The notes below the pieces were generated by a model. The model saw only the letters and a list, made by a program, of their open reading frames with translations, was not told the origin of the DNA and searched no databases. 64,000 nt of DNA from positions 21,169 through 85,168 of the IMG/VR virus record IMGVR_UViG_3300046810_000466; one strand, given 5' to 3'. This document shows, in pieces, positions 46,998-59,986 of the stretch; the first letter of the stretch is position 1; the number at the start of each line of letters is the position of its first letter. The translations under genes were made by a program, and so were the position numbers. The stretch comes from a virus.

Positions 46998-47045
46998 CGT
47001 CATAGCTCCCTCTACCCCGCAAAGGGTAGAGGGAGTGTATGCCGT
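46998..47045. terminator. bidirectional hairpin flanked by CGTCATA / TATGCCGT
   Basis: CTCCCTCTACCC-CGCAAA-GGGTAGAGGGAG perfect stem between convergent genes. Confidence 0.75.
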
Positions 47046-49189
47046 CAATAATAGTCCATTGCCAGTTGTTCGAGGTCGGTATGGTTAAAGTAGAACCCTA
47101 ACGTTTCCAACACCAAGTAAAACATTGCAGTTGCTTTCTGAACGATCTTGCGGGTATTGATCACCATCATGATCTCATCGGGAATACCCTTCGACGTTAT
47201 AATCGGCAATGGGAGTTGCAGCGATGTGATCTTATCGCGACCGTTTTCTTCTAACCAGCGACGCATGCGGGCTGCGACATCTTGGTCTGGCATATTCTCC
47301 AGCCAAGTATTGGTCTTGGTTTTACTATCCAATTCCAAACTCACAGCGATCGCCTTGTAAGGTGGTGGCGCAATGGCACCGTACTTCGCACCAAACACAT
47401 CGTTCCACATGCCGTATTGCTTGTAAGTTGCGGCACCTTCCTGTTGCTTGTATGCTGCCGGGTCTTTCACCGTGGACAGTTTCAAGTAACGGAATTCACC
47501 TCGCTTAATTGACGCCACAATACTGCGTTCCAGATCGGCCACCTCCGTCAAATACTTCTTGGCACTGAGTTTACCGTCACGCATTAGCGTATCGATAATA
47601 TCAATCATCATGTTTTCCGCTTGCTGTACCACCTCTTTCGGAACGTTCGAGGATTTCAGGTGCACGCCCTTAATCTCCTTTTGCAGTTCCTCTTTGATGT
47701 TACCTTCCTGGCAGCTAATCATGGCGAAGTAGTGCTTACCCAGATTCGTCAGGCTAAACACCTTGAACATGAATTCGTTCTTCATCGCGATCGTAAAGGC
47801 GTGATCACGACCAATGCCGACGTTAGCCGACATCTTTGCCAGGATGTGGATGATTGTTTGCGACGCCAGGGTAATCATGGCTGCAGCAACCGCATCGTGG
47901 GTGTCGTCGAAGGTGAACTCGCCACAATACCACTTGATCCAGTCTTGCGTCGTAAAGATGGTGGAGTCCGTATCGGAGACCATCACTACACGACGCAAGC
48001 TGCTCGGGAACTGCGCTACGGATGCAGGCATGTTGTCTGTTGCCCAGAAAGCATGGATCAAGTCGTCAAAATCCCACAGCACTTGAGCAATGTTTTCTGT
48101 CTGTGCCGCGACCTTGGCAAAGCCTTCAGGATTGTTCTTCTCGATTTTGTCGAGCGACTTACCTTTAGTAATGTCAGGACGCAGCTGTTTAGCCAGACTC
48201 AGGAAGTCTTCTGGCCACTTTCGGATGGTTTCGCTGGGAGTGGGGTCCAGTACATCCACCCGTTGAATAAGCCGTCCCATAAAAGCGCGTACAAAAGCAT
48301 CGTTCATCTCCTTGAGTTGGTACATGTCGCCGGTGTAGACGAATGCAGCGCGTTGAATTGGAGAAAGACGATCGATCAACAATTGCAACTTCGCATACGA
48401 TCGTTTATCTGTCCAATACAACAATGCAGAACGAGTAATGACGCCCATCGTCTCTTCGATGGTTGGGTAGTGCAAGTTGTACTTCGTCATCACCTGTTCA
48501 ATCAAGGTGTAGTCTGAATTGGCAACAATGGAGACGATGTTGTTACGGGTAACCTTGTACGACCAGTAGTGGCGATTGCTGGCCAAGAAACGTTCGTTGT
48601 TGGCGTTACCATACGCCGAGGTTTGGCGGCATGCTGATGTCAGGGAACTGTGGCCGGTCTTATTGTGCAGCGGGTTGTGCTCACTAACCATCGCGCCGGA
48701 TACGGCGTTGTTCGCCAGCTTCTCGGTGGTTTGAGAACCCTTGAAGAAGCTATAGTTGAAACTCTTCTTCCCTTCATCCTGTTCCGCCACGAACATTTTC
48801 TTCTTTGCTTTTCCGCGGCTCTTGACGTTATCGTCCTGGAACTCGGACAGCGCCGAGTAACGAACCTTTGGATTATGGTAAGTCGTAAAGGTCGGAGCGA
48901 AGATGTTACCGTCACGCAGGATGGTACTGATGTACTCCGACATCGGCAACTCACTTTCCTCGCGGTCGCCGGACTCAAAGTCGCGTTCCAGGAAAATGGC
49001 CTTAGGATCATGTATTTGGAAATCCCCGCCAGGTCCCAACTGGCTCTTAACAAACTCAGCAGCTTCTTCTCTTGAGATACCTGCCATGATCTGCAAGTGT
49101 TCAATCTGATCATGGACGTAATGCTTAAGCGGATTAATATCGCGCTTATAATCGTTTGCATCCGAAATAAACGGACTGTTGTTCGACAT
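47045..49189 (-). CDS. DNA polymerase family B, polymerase subunit (phiKZ gp50-like)
   Basis: Start MSNNSPF (AAGGA RBS); motif B 'KLANNAVSG', motif C 'SDTDST', 'KHY', 'EIKGVHLK'. Confidence 0.88.
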   Translation of the reverse strand: MSNNSPFISDANDYKRDINPLKHYVHDQIEHLQIMAGISREEAAEFVKSQLGPGGDFQIHDPKAIFLERDFESGDREESELPMSEYISTILRDGNIFAPTFTTYHNPKVRYSALSEFQDDNVKSRGKAKKKMFVAEQDEGKKSFNYSFFKGSQTTEKLANNAVSGAMVSEHNPLHNKTGHSSLTSACRQTSAYGNANNERFLASNRHYWSYKVTRNNIVSIVANSDYTLIEQVMTKYNLHYPTIEETMGVITRSALLYWTDKRSYAKLQLLIDRLSPIQRAAFVYTGDMYQLKEMNDAFVRAFMGRLIQRVDVLDPTPSETIRKWPEDFLSLAKQLRPDITKGKSLDKIEKNNPEGFAKVAAQTENIAQVLWDFDDLIHAFWATDNMPASVAQFPSSLRRVVMVSDTDSTIFTTQDWIKWYCGEFTFDDTHDAVAAAMITLASQTIIHILAKMSANVGIGRDHAFTIAMKNEFMFKVFSLTNLGKHYFAMISCQEGNIKEELQKEIKGVHLKSSNVPKEVVQQAENMMIDIIDTLMRDGKLSAKKYLTEVADLERSIVASIKRGEFRYLKLSTVKDPAAYKQQEGAATYKQYGMWNDVFGAKYGAIAPPPYKAIAVSLELDSKTKTNTWLENMPDQDVAARMRRWLEENGRDKITSLQLPLPIITSKGIPDEIMMVINTRKIVQKATAMFYLVLETLGFYFNHTDLEQLAMDYY

Positions 49190-49240
49190 GCCAGCATCCT
49201 TTAATTCTGCGTTGACTACATCATTAGGTTCGACGATAGA

Positions 49241-49296
49241 AAAGAAAAAAGGACGGCATAAAAGGAGGACAGGAACCGCCGAAGCGATCCCTGTCC
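49241..49296 (-). terminator. hairpin followed by TTTTATGCCGT and T-run
   Basis: GGACAGG..CGC-CGAA-GCG..CCTGTCC stem. Confidence 0.65.
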
Positions 49297-49299
49297 AAA

Positions 49300-49625
49300 A
49301 GTGTATCATGGATGTCCAAACAAATGCTAGGTAAAACAGAGCGACACTACAAGCTGTTCAGGGATGTGAAATAACAAGATCGTCAACCGCTTTGACCCGA
49401 TCAATCGTGCAAAAAAGGATGGCAAAACACACGAGATCGTAGATCTCACAATTTTCCTTTCCTGCTATTTCGCGCCACCTCTACGCTTTACATCCTTGGC
49501 CTCTTATAGCGCCGCCCTCACACCTCTGTCGCAAGCAGAGCAATACGTCAACCAAGCCAGTATGGCCAACGCATTTAAAGGTTGTGTGACTCCCTTTCCT
49601 ACACTTTATACTCAGCCCTAATAAA
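49300..49625 (-). ncRNA. candidate structured non-coding RNA
   Basis: No convincing gene; nested helices with many G-U pairs on the minus strand only (see findings). Confidence 0.45.
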
Positions 49626-49632
49626 AAATCAA

Positions 49633-50052
49633 TCAGGGTACCTGAGCAATTGTTGCTTGATCGAACGAGATCTTGCTAACTTTAAAACCGTTGGCAGCCA
49701 AGGCATCCAAGAGCTTGCTTTGCGAACCACTGCTCTCGTTGTCCACTTCAATCGTGAACTTGCCGAGGTTAACTACTTGTACCGTGTTGGCGACGATCCA
49801 GGCCAGTCCGATGAGTTGCGTCTGACCGGACGGGGTCTTGATCTTGATGTAGTTGTACTTGTTTGGATCGTTTGGCGTCGAAGACGGCAGGGACGGATAC
49901 ACCAGCGCATGCATTGCCTTGGTATCCAGCCCGCTAGCTTCAGCCGTTTCTTGATCGATGATTGCCAAAATCTTGACGTTCTTAAATGCTGTGCCCAGTA
50001 CAGAGACCGGATACACTTCGAACGAATACATCCCTGAGATTTTAAAGTCCAT
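49633..50052 (-). CDS. conserved chimallivirus protein (phiKZ gp49 position)
   Basis: 139 aa; 'YSFEVYPVSVLG..FKNVKIL', 'HALVYPSLP', 'IGLAWI'. Confidence 0.7.
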   Translation of the reverse strand: MDFKISGMYSFEVYPVSVLGTAFKNVKILAIIDQETAEASGLDTKAMHALVYPSLPSSTPNDPNKYNYIKIKTPSGQTQLIGLAWIVANTVQVVNLGKFTIEVDNESSGSQSKLLDALAANGFKVSKISFDQATIAQVP

Positions 50053-53216: not shown

Positions 53217-53646
53217 GGTTTCCTAGTTGAGTTTGACTGACATCGCTTTCGATATACAACCAACACGCTTGACGCGTGATCGAATGGGTTTGGATGTCGC
53301 CGTAGAATTTAGGGATGAACACTTGTTTGCCAGTGCGATCATGGAGATCAAAATGACAAACCAGTTCGTTGTGTACTCTGCTGAACTCAGGATGACGTTG
53401 CACATGCATTGCTGGACAAATATAGAACACTTCATACAGCTCTTGCGTGATAATCCAGTTGATCAATTCCTCGCGTTGCGATGTAGGATCATCAACACGG
53501 TAGGCATCCTTCCAACGCCAGTTACGATCAATTGGACTATTGTCAGTAATCCAGGGATAGCGAAAAGCAATCTGATTTAAACACTGTTCAATGTAGGTCA
53601 GATAGTCGTTAATGTCCAGCACCCATATCGTTCGTGTAAGGCGCAT
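53182..53646 (-). CDS. hypothetical protein
   Basis: Start MRLTR with AAGGA RBS; 154 aa. Confidence 0.6.
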   Translation of the reverse strand: MRLTRTIWVLDINDYLTYIEQCLNQIAFRYPWITDNSPIDRNWRWKDAYRVDDPTSQREELINWIITQELYEVFYICPAMHVQRHPEFSRVHNELVCHFDLHDRTGKQVFIPKFYGDIQTHSITRQACWLYIESDVSQTQLGNHVLPPIPSTRY

Positions 53647-53724
53647 AGGTGGTCCTTTGAGGGTCTTCTGGTATACAATACCCAGCCGAGGTAAAATAAA
53701 GCCTACAGCGCGTTTAAACGCGTG

Positions 53725-53789
53725 ACGGCATAAAAAGAAAAGCACACTTAACTATACAGTTCTCTTGCGAGAAGGGATAGTTAAGTGTG
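53725..53789 (-). terminator. long hairpin followed by T-run and TATGCCGT
   Basis: CACACTTAACTAT..TTCTC-TTGC-GAGAA..ATAGTTAAGTGTG. Confidence 0.7.
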
Positions 53790-54029
53790 ATGAAAGAACC
53801 GATGACTTCTTCTTCACAGGGCTAGCTATAGACTAGCCCACAGCTTCCATACACCGGATCTTTCATGCTCATTCGCTTAACGTCCGATGATCCCATCCTG
53901 TCGTAGACTCAACCGGCACATTGAAGGGCCGTTGGAATACGAAACAAGGTGGCGAGACTCGGACAAGGCGCCACACAGGCTAGCCTAATAAACGCGTAAA
54001 GACGCGAGTGGGAGGGTTGGCGAAATCGC
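53790..54029 (-). ncRNA. candidate structured RNA downstream of phuZ
   Basis: Consecutive hairpins filling a gene-free interval (see findings). Confidence 0.35.
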
Positions 54030-54311
54030 TCAAGGACGCTGGCTTTCAAAGCCCTTAACTCTGAGCCAGCGTCCCTTAGGGACAGTTCGGGACTGTGGGG
54101 TCTGGAGACGCCCACTGAATCGAGGACAGCAGTCCACCTCGAGCAGATAATGATCGTAAAGACCAATCTGCACAGGAAGGATCAAGTCGCTGGCGTCGAA
54201 GACTTCAAGGACTGGTTGAACCAGACCCTGCATTCCCGTCGCGAGCAGTGCTTCTGCTATCCGTCGCCCTAAACCACTACCACCGCACCCAATCAAGAGA
54301 ACGGTGGTCAC
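54030..54311 (-). CDS. small hypothetical protein with Rossmann-like GCGGSG loop
   Basis: GTG start 3 nt after the phuZ stop; 'VLLIGCGGSGLGRRIAEALL'. Confidence 0.45.
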   Translation of the reverse strand: MTTVLLIGCGGSGLGRRIAEALLATGMQGLVQPVLEVFDASDLILPVQIGLYDHYLLEVDCCPRFSGRLQTPQSRTVPKGRWLRVKGFESQRP

Positions 54312-54314
54312 GTA

Positions 54315-55355
54315 TTACAGCACCAGGCCAGTGTTGTCGACCTTGTCGGTGTTCGACAGGATCGAGGTCTTCGGCGGACGCGACTCGGCAGCTTGAGTCA
54401 GATCGCTCAGGAAACCGTTCAGGCCCTTGGTGAACTGCGGCAGCAGGCCGTCGGAGATGACGTAGCTGATGACCTTGCCAGCCAGCTGTTCGCCGCCGTC
54501 CTTGATCTGCGGCAGGATACCAACGGTCTGGTACTCCGGCGCTTGCGGCAGGTCGGTGTTCACGCCTTCAGGCGCCAGCGTTGCCACCGAAATGATGTTA
54601 CCCAGCTTGGCCAGGTCGCTTTTCATTTCGGTGTTGTCGCCGTCGGCTTGGTCGTGCCAGAGGATGGTCAGCACCGCCAGCTGGGCGCCGAACGAGGTCA
54701 GGCCGTCTTTGCTGAAGTTCAACCAGTTCTGCAGATCCTTGGTGTCCAGTTCGCGGTTGCGACGCGAGTAGAGCATGCCCAGGTAGCTGATGGTCGAGAT
54801 CATCGACTGGTCAACTTTGGCACGGATCAGCGTCGGCGAGTTCTGCAGATAATGCATCACCACCGGCATGTCGCGTTTCTGGGAGATCGCTTCGTAGGTT
54901 TTCAGCGTCTTCAGGGTGTTCTCGGCTTCCAGCTTGGAAGCGGTCGAACCGACCATCAGGATGATAACGGCCACGCCGCGAGCCAGCAGTTCGGACGCCA
55001 GCAGTGGACCGATAACCGAACCGGAGCCGCCGGCGCCGGAGGACAGGATGATGTTCAGGTCGCCTGGCTTGTGCTGTTGCAGGATATCTTTGACGCGTTC
55101 GGCGATGGCGCCGCTGTTTTCGGAACGTACTTTACCGGAGCCGTCCAGGCCTTCGACCAGATAGCACTCGGCTTCACGGGAATGGGCGGACAGGTTCGAG
55201 CGGCTGGTGTCAACCAGAACCACTTCGAAGTCGGAAACCAGGTCACGGTTCACGGTGGTGTTCTTCAGACCGGCTACGATGTTGATGGCTGCACCGCCGC
55301 AGGCGTAGATGCGGGTACGACCTTTAGCAGGGGTTTGAGTAACTACTTGGTTCAT
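54315..55355 (-). CDS. phuZ: PhuZ phage tubulin
   Basis: 'IYACGGAAINI', 'DTSRSN', 'DGSGKVR', tubulin signature 'SGAGGSGSVIGP', 'ELDTKD', C-terminal 'DNTGLVL'. Confidence 0.93.
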   Translation of the reverse strand: MNQVVTQTPAKGRTRIYACGGAAINIVAGLKNTTVNRDLVSDFEVVLVDTSRSNLSAHSREAECYLVEGLDGSGKVRSENSGAIAERVKDILQQHKPGDLNIILSSGAGGSGSVIGPLLASELLARGVAVIILMVGSTASKLEAENTLKTLKTYEAISQKRDMPVVMHYLQNSPTLIRAKVDQSMISTISYLGMLYSRRNRELDTKDLQNWLNFSKDGLTSFGAQLAVLTILWHDQADGDNTEMKSDLAKLGNIISVATLAPEGVNTDLPQAPEYQTVGILPQIKDGGEQLAGKVISYVISDGLLPQFTKGLNGFLSDLTQAAESRPPKTSILSNTDKVDNTGLVL

Positions 55356-58847: not shown

Positions 58848-59522
58848 TTAGTAGTGCTTTTCTCCGTTCTTGATGAAGTAGGTGTTGATCGAGTGGGGAT
58901 AATGTTCGTCGCCCAAAAACAAACGAAGAAGGTCTTCGCTGTTTACTGTGGTTTCGTCCTGGAACACAATGCGGCCAAAACGCTGTTCCTGGTCACCGCT
59001 CGTACGTGTGATAAAGTACCCGATCTCATCTACGTCATAAGTGATGAGTATTCCAATTGTAGCAACTGGAATCGTGCCGTCGTCGTTTAGACGTAGGCTC
59101 AGGTAGATGTGTCCGTACTTGGTGCCGATGGCTGTGATCTGCCAAAGACGAGGACCTTCCGGACTGTTGAACATCTTCCGGTACGTCTGGATTTGATTCT
59201 CGTCACGTGGACGTGGGTCGAAGTCTGTCATGTGGTCCACGTGCAACTGCTGCAGATACTTGTTCAGAAGCAGCTCTGCAAGGATGTAATCTGGCGAACG
59301 CACGAACAACGGACGCAGCATGGTGTTGTACTGGTCGATCGAGAGTTCTTCACTCAGGTTGTTCTTGTACATGGTCGTGGCGCTGACATGAAGGTTGGGC
59401 GGAGGTGGCGGAGCTTCTTTATCCGTCACAGGTTTTGGTGCAGAGACAACGGGCTGTTGTACTGGAGAGGAATGATTCTTCGCCAGCAAAAGCAACACTG
59501 TGGCAATCACAGTAGTTAACAT
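58848..59522 (-). CDS. hypothetical protein with N-terminal membrane anchor/signal and Pro-rich linker
   Basis: 224 aa, AAGGAG RBS; 'MLTTVIATVLLLLA', 'APPPPPN'. Confidence 0.65.
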   Translation of the reverse strand: MLTTVIATVLLLLAKNHSSPVQQPVVSAPKPVTDKEAPPPPPNLHVSATTMYKNNLSEELSIDQYNTMLRPLFVRSPDYILAELLLNKYLQQLHVDHMTDFDPRPRDENQIQTYRKMFNSPEGPRLWQITAIGTKYGHIYLSLRLNDDGTIPVATIGILITYDVDEIGYFITRTSGDQEQRFGRIVFQDETTVNSEDLLRLFLGDEHYPHSINTYFIKNGEKHY

Positions 59523-59534
59523 GGTAGCTCCTTA

Positions 59535-59570
59535 GCGTTATAGGTAAATCTCAGCACTTACCTATAACGC
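59535..59570 (-). terminator. 13-bp hairpin
   Basis: GCGTTATAGGTAA..TTACCTATAACGC. Confidence 0.55.
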
Positions 59571-59588
59571 CAATAAATGGCATCTAGG

Positions 59589-59816
59589 TTATTCGTCGAG
59601 ATTAAGATCATAGCGAACAGCAAGTTTCTTCAATTCAGCTATCGCTTCGTAGATGATTTCAGGATTAGTGGAGATATTGCTTTGATCAAACCACATAGTT
59701 ACCTCGTGGATAGCATCTTCCGTTTTCACGGTCTCAAATAACTTGAGCGCAATTTTTAGCGCCTGCTTTCGTATTACAAGCAAGTCAATTTGTTGTTTTA
59801 GTTCCTTCGATGTCAC
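59589..59816 (-). CDS. small AT-rich hypothetical protein
   Basis: GTG start after AAGGA; ~75 aa helical ORF. Confidence 0.5.
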   Translation of the reverse strand: MTSKELKQQIDLLVIRKQALKIALKLFETVKTEDAIHEVTMWFDQSNISTNPEIIYEAIAELKKLAVRYDLNLDE

Positions 59817-59830
59817 AACTTTCCTTTCTA

Positions 59831-59887
59831 TAAAAAAGGAAACGGCATACAGCACATGGGACCAGGTCTCCCCAGTCCCATGTGCTG
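59831..59887 (-). terminator. hairpin followed by TATGCCGT and T-run
   Basis: CAGCACATGGGAC..GTCCCATGTGCTG 13-bp stem. Confidence 0.72.
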
Positions 59888-59986
59888 CAATGGTTTTAGA
59901 AGTTCCCTTTCGCCCAATTAGCGATCAGGATCAGACTAACTGCGCCTAATGCCGACAGAATGACCTCTGTCGTGGATGGGAACAGG

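Follow-up and report, generated by a model that had tools for sequence, protein, structure and literature searches.

What is encoded in the 443 nt that separate the DNA polymerase gene of an uncultured jumbo phage from its upstream neighbour? Phages related to phiKZ rely on polymerases of their own and replicate within a protein 'nucleus'; the RNA biology of these viruses has barely been explored. In the window analysed here, i.e. a 64-kb stretch of DNA to which the coordinates below refer, an initial annotation had flagged positions 49300-49625 as an undescribed structured noncoding RNA or regulatory switch. The flagged stretch, the sequence and coordinates of which were given correctly, lies on the minus strand of an 85-kb viral record with an estimated completeness of 31%. 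Strand-specific folding, covariation in nine sequences and the lack of an Rfam match all bear out this proposal, and the RNA is larger than had been described.

The spacer (49190-49632) is on the minus strand, as are all of the features discussed below, and both of its flanking genes read in the same direction. Upstream lies the gene for SH3DP (49633..50052, 139 aa; Pfam PF20287, E 2e-35), an SH3-fold protein associated with phage DNA polymerases and a homologue of phiKZ gp49. A tblastn search with this protein matched PHIKZ049 and its relatives in 182 phage records, and its identity to FLC9 gp3 is 36%. In phiKZ, antisense knock-down of the SH3 partner gene is reported to cause a strong plaque phenotype (PMC12571901). 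Downstream lies the gene for a divergent family-B DNA polymerase (47045..49189, 714 aa; Pfam PF20286 divDNApol, E 1.3e-233), the true start of which, judged from translation of the start region, is the ATG at 49189, with an AAAGGA box at 49202-49197. By polymerase sequence the best cultured relative is Burkholderia phage FLC9 (45% identical), and the Ralstonia phages RP12, RP31, FLC4-3B and FLC1-1B are ~42% identical; the source is thus an uncultured phiKZ-like jumbo phage.

Does this spacer fold better than expected by chance, and on which strand? The minus strand of 49300-49625 folds at -108.6 kcal/mol compared with a shuffle mean of -91.9 (z = -3.17), and none of 100 dinucleotide shuffles folded equally well, whereas on the plus strand z is -1.03 and 17 of 100 shuffles were equally good. 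The excess of folding is therefore confined to the minus strand.

We then turned to comparative evidence. A scan with the polymerase alignment, by which the loci of relatives were retrieved, returned 80 + 28 loci; a protein search had found polymerase relatives at 64-75% identity. The comparison set comprises nine sequences, namely the window and eight related metagenomic jumbo phages with polymerases 56-76% identical to that of the window: six relatives (L007, L008, L009, L010, L011 and L039) at 71-76%, L012 at 56%, and L088, which comes from metagenomes, at 72%. L087 duplicates L010, and L089 duplicates L008. In all eight relatives the spacer can be aligned with that of the window, invariant blocks alternating with variable stretches in a mosaic; the invariant blocks include a T-run plus TAT..TG, the GCGUAGAGGUGGCGCGAA block and UUGAUC. 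Alignments A3 and A4 were made with MAFFT from sequence only, while A5 was fitted to the covariance model and hence leans towards that model. Two controls were used: slid controls, in which the 3' partners are shifted by 1-3 columns, and 500 column shuffles.

The larger of the two folded domains that emerged, the 3' domain (49337..49519; ~190 nt), is defined by RNAalifold together with a 54-pair model, and its length is nearly constant (185-196 nt in all members). A long-range closing helix of 16-17 bp, P1 (49518-49503 with 49352-49338), encloses the inner helix P2 (49498-49490 with 49367-49359), which opens into a three-way junction with the small hairpin P3 (49486-49472) and with P5 (49471-49460 with 49379-49368). 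P5 in turn encloses the long hairpin P4 (49444-49430 with 49409-49395), which carries the invariant UUGAUC and has a pyrimidine-rich loop (49429-49410). RNAalifold predicted P1-P4 from the MAFFT alignments, and P5 and an extension of P4 were added by hand. In the RNAalifold predictions, compensatory changes affect 26 of 37 pairs when only the 3' domain is aligned, and 42 of 57 when the whole spacer is.

The 54-pair model is strongly supported by the sequence-only alignment A3, on which 82.7% of 474 cells are paired, compared with 31.7-47.6% when slid, and 35 of 54 pairs show double-sided changes, compared with 13-19 when slid. P1 alone has such changes at 16 of its 17 pairs. None of the 500 column shuffles attained any of the five measures for this model on A3, a signal to which shared ancestry could contribute in part since there are only nine sequences; the far lower values of the slid controls argue against this explanation. 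On A5, which leans towards the model, 84.4% of cells are paired and 39 of 54 pairs are double-sided. Across the nine sequences the 54-pair model has 70 G-U cells and 21 A-C cells, and the share of paired cells would drop from 82.7% to 72.4% if the opposite strand were read. This imbalance shows that the fold belongs to the minus strand, in agreement with the earlier argument that G-U pairs on one strand point to selection on an RNA structure. The minimum free energy structure of the window sequence contains 73 of the 78 consensus pairs.

How does this fold compare with the one drawn initially? About half of the latter was wrong in detail. Its perfect 12/12 helix is P5 of the conserved model; the proximal part of P5 is well kept and covaries, and the distal part, which has indels, aligns poorly and is 58-67% paired. 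A CUCUG/CAGAG hairpin (49540-49524) and the hairpin at the 3' end, discussed below, hold as well, the former with 86.7-88.9% of cells paired in the nine sequences. Four other helices are complementary in the window but are not retained in relatives: 64.0% of cells are paired for the outer helix (49491-49472 with 49347-49331), 70.4% for the GAGAUC-UAC-GAUCUC hairpin, 57.7% for the GAUCG..CGAUC hairpin and 38.0% for the UUGGCC/GGCCAA closure of the 5' part. The first three of these are jointly paired in 63.5% of cells, with a covariation score equalled by 82 of 500 shuffles. The strands of all four are used instead by the covarying helices P1, P3 and P4.

Upstream of P1, the 5' domain (49524..49597) consists of three hairpins that are found at equivalent places in all nine sequences, with differing stem sequences. 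Ha (49597-49593 with 49581-49577) has a conserved loop of the CACAC type; the loop of Hb (49575-49563 with 49554-49542) is related to the conserved GGGACCUGGCC of the relatives; and Hc, the CUCUG/CAGAG hairpin (49540-49536 and 49528-49524), has the loop CUUGCGA, conserved as yUUGCGA. On the MAFFT alignment A4 this domain is 77.9% paired compared with 40-50% when slid, and none of 500 shuffles equalled either its pairing or its covariation score, parts of Hb being poorly aligned.

Several candidate tertiary or long-range contacts were considered by eye and rejected. Pairing between the Hb loop and an arm of the terminator (CCAGG) is possible in only four of nine sequences, that of the window not among them. 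For a pseudoknot of the pyrimidine-rich P4 loop with the purine-rich J5/4, complementarity is good in the window and only generic in relatives. The P4 loop of the window (..GCCAUCCUUU..) is also complementary over 8 bases to the ribosome-binding region of the polymerase gene (AAAGGAUG, 49204-49195); in relatives, only the generic AGG(A) core of this 8-bp pairing is left, and the contact was likewise set aside. Of the DNA-read contigs that three DNA runs gave at the locus, one is full-length and a possible source of the window, and two are short (151 and 182 nt); they contain one U-to-C difference, located in an unpaired stretch, at a depth of 3.2.

The element ends at an intrinsic terminator. 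Detected by a terminator scan at 49253..49296, it is composed of a 13-bp hairpin with a UUCG loop (49296-49267) followed by TCC and TTTTATGCCGT (49263-49253), and lies ~60 nt before the polymerase ATG. The annotation had recognised a terminal hairpin followed by TATGCCGT, which is indeed the published phiKZ-type terminator: at 61 terminators of phiKZ a GC-rich stem-loop is followed by TTAT, with the consensus ...YTTATKYYGT (PMC10914365), and the hairpin plus TTATGCCGT fits this motif. The module is present in all eight relatives, among which the hairpin covaries (11 pairs, 9 of them with double-sided changes), and also in FLC9, RP12, Xoo-sp14 and phiKZ. Further modules stand between genes on the minus strand of the window, at 59880-59830, 57910-57860, 53790-53725, 39945-39893 and 24040-23987, each laid out as a GC hairpin, a TATGC(C/T)GT-like motif and a T-run; the phage thus shares the terminator grammar of phiKZ. 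Between the 3' domain and the terminator lies a U-rich tail with a variable spacer (49297..49336; columns ~348-428 of alignment A2). A U-run follows P1 in the window (49336-49328) and at homologous positions, with at least 4 U within ~10 nt after P1 in seven of nine sequences (by eye). Together with the 3' domain, the U-run could act as a first stop or as the site of a U-binding protein ahead of the canonical terminator.

At the other end, a promoter-like motif (49599..49628) directly follows the SH3DP stop codon, with a T-run at 49628-49623 and, after ~12 nt, TATAAAGTGTAG (49610-49599). Its T-run, TAT and TG columns are invariant in all nine sequences; the box varies as TATAAAGTG(C/T)AG, TATTGAATGCAG and the like, and that of the window itself reads AGTG, not TATG. 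The same type of motif follows SH3DP in the more distant loci L025 and L035, both with TATG(C/T)AG, and L053 and, by eye, in FLC9 and RP12. Late promoters of phiKZ are described as TATG with G as +1 (PMC4666361) and its early promoters as a T-rich stretch plus a -10-like box (PMC8244752), and from this analogy we infer a transcript start near G49602. A second promoter-like motif (49216..49250), with a T-run at 49250-49245, a spacer and TAATGATGTAG (49226-49216), stands after the terminator, ahead of the start of the polymerase gene, and has been conserved among close relatives. The composite T-run + RTGYAR motif occurs at only two sites in the window, these being the upstream and downstream boxes, a count that is not above chance (at least 2 in 40 of 200 shuffles). 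A claim for promoters from motif counts was accordingly dropped, and the promoter argument rests on conservation and position. With box and terminator included, the element spans ~49253-49628; the initially proposed bounds, 49300-49625, captured a real element and were too narrow.

Taken together, the spacer holds a noncoding RNA fold of two domains that is conserved, single-copy and specific to one strand, with a phiKZ-type terminator at its end. This fold represents a real family of structured RNAs, hitherto undescribed, in one lineage of jumbo phages. How might it work? The explanation towards which we lean, with some reserve as to the whole, is an independently folding minus-strand noncoding RNA of ~340 nt that runs from its own start to the terminator and binds protein in the replication module. 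Transcription would start immediately behind the SH3DP stop codon, at the T-run and the (A/G)TG box, which, by analogy with the TATG(+1) promoters of phiKZ, may be read by the phage's own RNA polymerase, and would end at the phiKZ-type terminator to release a discrete RNA of ~340 nt. A further copy of the promoter-like box, placed after the terminator, would serve the polymerase gene. Our guess is that the folded RNA is a protein-binding RNA tied to the replication module (polymerase and SH3 partner) and no simple attenuator; the fixed place between the genes for these two proteins and the complexity of the fold suggest such a role, conserved gene order being the sole computed tie to replication. 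More tentatively still, it could constitute a new class of large RNA, specific to one lineage of phiKZ-like phages, that works with the phage's replication machinery either in trans, as a scaffold for or regulator of the polymerase and its SH3 partner, or as a sensor by which expression of the polymerase is gated.

The chief competing explanation is a leader acting in cis. In that case the fold would sense a small molecule or a protein (e.g. the polymerase or SH3DP) and set terminator read-through into the polymerase gene, with the short RNA as a by-product. Attenuators and riboswitches are classically laid out in this way, with an intrinsic terminator placed after a structured domain and shortly before a gene; the order SH3DP-RNA-polymerase is retained in all nine members, and in phiKZ 34 of 42 terminators inside 5'UTRs are reported to be two-mode, yielding a short RNA or read-through (PMC10914365). 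While the spacer RNA resembles riboswitches and T-box leaders in having a conserved folded domain and then an intrinsic terminator before a gene, it differs from them in several respects. No known aptamer was matched in Rfam. The distance from P1 to the terminator varies from ~40 nt in the window up to ~110 nt in L009 and L010, a variation that speaks against the fold being tightly coupled to the terminator, and no conserved antiterminator or other alternative pairing that overlaps the terminator was seen by eye in the nine sequences. Finally, the conserved promoter-like box after the terminator means that the polymerase gene need not rely on read-through. We therefore regard a leader as rather unlikely.

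A second alternative is that the RNA is a long structured 3' UTR of the SH3DP mRNA, without a promoter of its own, that stabilises or processes the message and from which a stable fragment is perhaps cut out. In this clade there is no terminator between the SH3DP stop codon and the RNA, while phiKZ has one directly after gp49, and 3'UTR-derived phage ncRNAs do exist, e.g. in PAK_P3 (PMC10914365). However, the box that immediately follows the stop codon, with its invariant T-run, TAT and TG, resembles a start signal, and most phage 3'UTRs are reported to be shorter than 100 nt (58.2%; PMC10914365), which makes this origin of the RNA improbable.

The annotation had also noted a GTG-started ORF of 40 codons buried in the stems. 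This ORF exists (49327..49449) but is not conserved and is not a gene: seven of eight relatives have no counterpart, a frame with partial similarity is present in L009 alone, L088 lacks any sense ORF of at least 20 aa at this position, and the ORFs found at this place in relatives vary in frame, length and sequence. Although the locus adjoins replication genes and the window's ORF comes with an AAAGGA box, we consider it a very remote prospect that the locus is a DNA-level element (a replication origin or arrayed sites for protein binding), that the fold is due to chance or that a small protein is encoded, given compensatory changes that keep G-U pairs on one strand only, covariation far above the controls and the lack of conservation of the ORF. 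No GC-skew feature was found at the locus, and the idea of a replication origin was rejected.

How widely is the RNA distributed? No Rfam 15 family reaches its gathering score anywhere in the 64-kb window; a search of 48900-50000 at E up to 10 gave two chance-level miRNA matches only, and a search of six family members at E up to 1 gave nothing on the RNA. Run over 100 sources, a covariance model of the 3' domain found exactly the nine members; thirteen of the 28 metagenome loci (2 duplicates and 11 others) were not among the sources. A blastn search of the spacer against 50,697 phage records returned no match, and single-protein scans for close loci found none. Of 64 loci obtained from IMG/VR by a scan with a conserved 17-mer, only four, all of them already-known members, were matched by the covariance model. 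A whole-spacer profile searched with nhmmer against loci L001-L114 found members only, and the covariance model with filters off scored at most 11 bits on FLC9, RP12, FLC4-3B, L025, L035, L053 and phiKZ. Pairwise blastn against the spacers of FLC9, RP12, Xoo-sp14 and phiKZ matched the terminator module alone. Thus, covariance-model, nhmmer and blastn searches found no homologue outside the clade. The RNA is present in one copy in the window's own record and in each of three complete relatives (271-323 kb, with terminal repeats).

Long spacers at the same position are nevertheless common. An ORF-free gap of more than 300 nt (no ORF of at least 70 aa) precedes the polymerase gene at ~40 of ~95 jumbo-phage polymerase loci (L007-L114); when the other long spacers were clustered, they contained near-identical duplicates only, too alike for covariation. 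Noncoding spacers of 430-540 nt near the polymerase gene are found in FLC9 (L002, 1956-2491), RP12 (L003, 1516-1952) and FLC4-3B (L187, 1288-1713), each with a T-run/ATG-type box at its start and the same terminator at its end. Folding is better than in shuffles for the gaps of FLC9 (z -3.17) and RP12 (z -2.25), and the RP12/RP31/FLC4-3B gap is a conserved mosaic with some compensatory changes, seen in two distinct sequences only. Structured RNAs may thus be common in front of the polymerase gene and evolve rapidly, with the reservation that the covariance model finds no match in FLC9, RP12 or FLC4-3B. Were the RNA to represent a new large-RNA class of a phiKZ-like lineage, the long structured spacers of FLC9, of RP12-like phages and of many uncultured relatives, unrelated as they look, would be fast-evolving versions of the same device. 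In phiKZ itself, the 201-nt spacer between gp49 and gp50 (L005, 3900-4100) contains a terminator, a T-run/TAATGTG box and, ~60 nt further on, a second hairpin terminator, and may represent a small-scale unit of promoter, RNA and terminator in the corresponding place.

The spacer RNA is best placed among the intergenic ncRNAs known from phiKZ-like phages, of which it is an unusually elaborate variant. ONT-cappable-seq has yielded ncRNA candidates in phiKZ and 201phi2-1 (Putzeys et al. 2024, PMC10914365; PMC11512511), including 17 5'UTR-derived candidates in phiKZ (PMC10914365) and, in 201phi2-1, 8 5'UTR-derived species among 11 sRNAs (PMC11512511). As with these, a promoter or promoter-like box, a short noncoding stretch with no ORF and a phiKZ-type terminator follow one another upstream of a gene in a phiKZ-like jumbo phage, and position is conserved among relatives. 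The published candidates are, however, shorter than 250 nt (71, 141 and 196 nt, for example) and are described as simple structures (PMC10914365, PMC11512511), whereas the spacer RNA, at a predicted ~340 nt, falls outside this range and is built of two domains, with covariation to back both its three-way junction and its long-range closing helix. In the main texts of these two studies no candidate upstream of the DNA polymerase gene is described, the full candidate lists being in supplementary tables, and the papers searched for structured RNAs of jumbo phages contain no description of an RNA in the SH3DP-polymerase spacer.

RNA structure upstream of a phage DNA polymerase gene has a precedent in the translational operator of T4 and RB69 gp43 mRNA, a ~40-nt hairpin that overlaps the ribosome-binding site. 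This likeness suggests autoregulation. Unlike the T4 operator, the RNA described here is a ~300-nt fold separated from the polymerase ribosome-binding site by the terminator plus ~60 nt: its folded domains end at 49337, the AAAGGA box at 49202-49197 lies beyond the terminator, and the locus is not an operator of the T4 type. No function is known for GOLLD, ROOL, OLE or raiA, RNAs of phages and bacteria that are likewise large, multi-helix and supported by covariation, some of them phage-borne. In contrast to these, the spacer RNA is smaller, is limited to one jumbo-phage clade, has a fixed place in the replication module and has no Rfam match. To our knowledge, large RNAs backed by covariation are rare, and each so far has pointed to distinct biology. 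Fixed across a whole lineage between the genes for the polymerase and its SH3 partner, the spacer RNA is a concrete candidate for a role of RNA in controlling or assembling the replication module. The work provides nine members, a covariance model ready for use and a secondary structure that has been corrected.

Elsewhere in the window, a crude gene map leaves two stretches with no ATG-started ORF of at least 70 aa, 53646-54315 (668 nt) and 59522-59960 (437 nt), the first of which contains a GTG-started ORF of 93 aa. Lastly, a T-run followed after 7 nt by TATATTAC stands at ~57038-57013 on the minus strand, which we take to resemble the early-promoter box of phiKZ.
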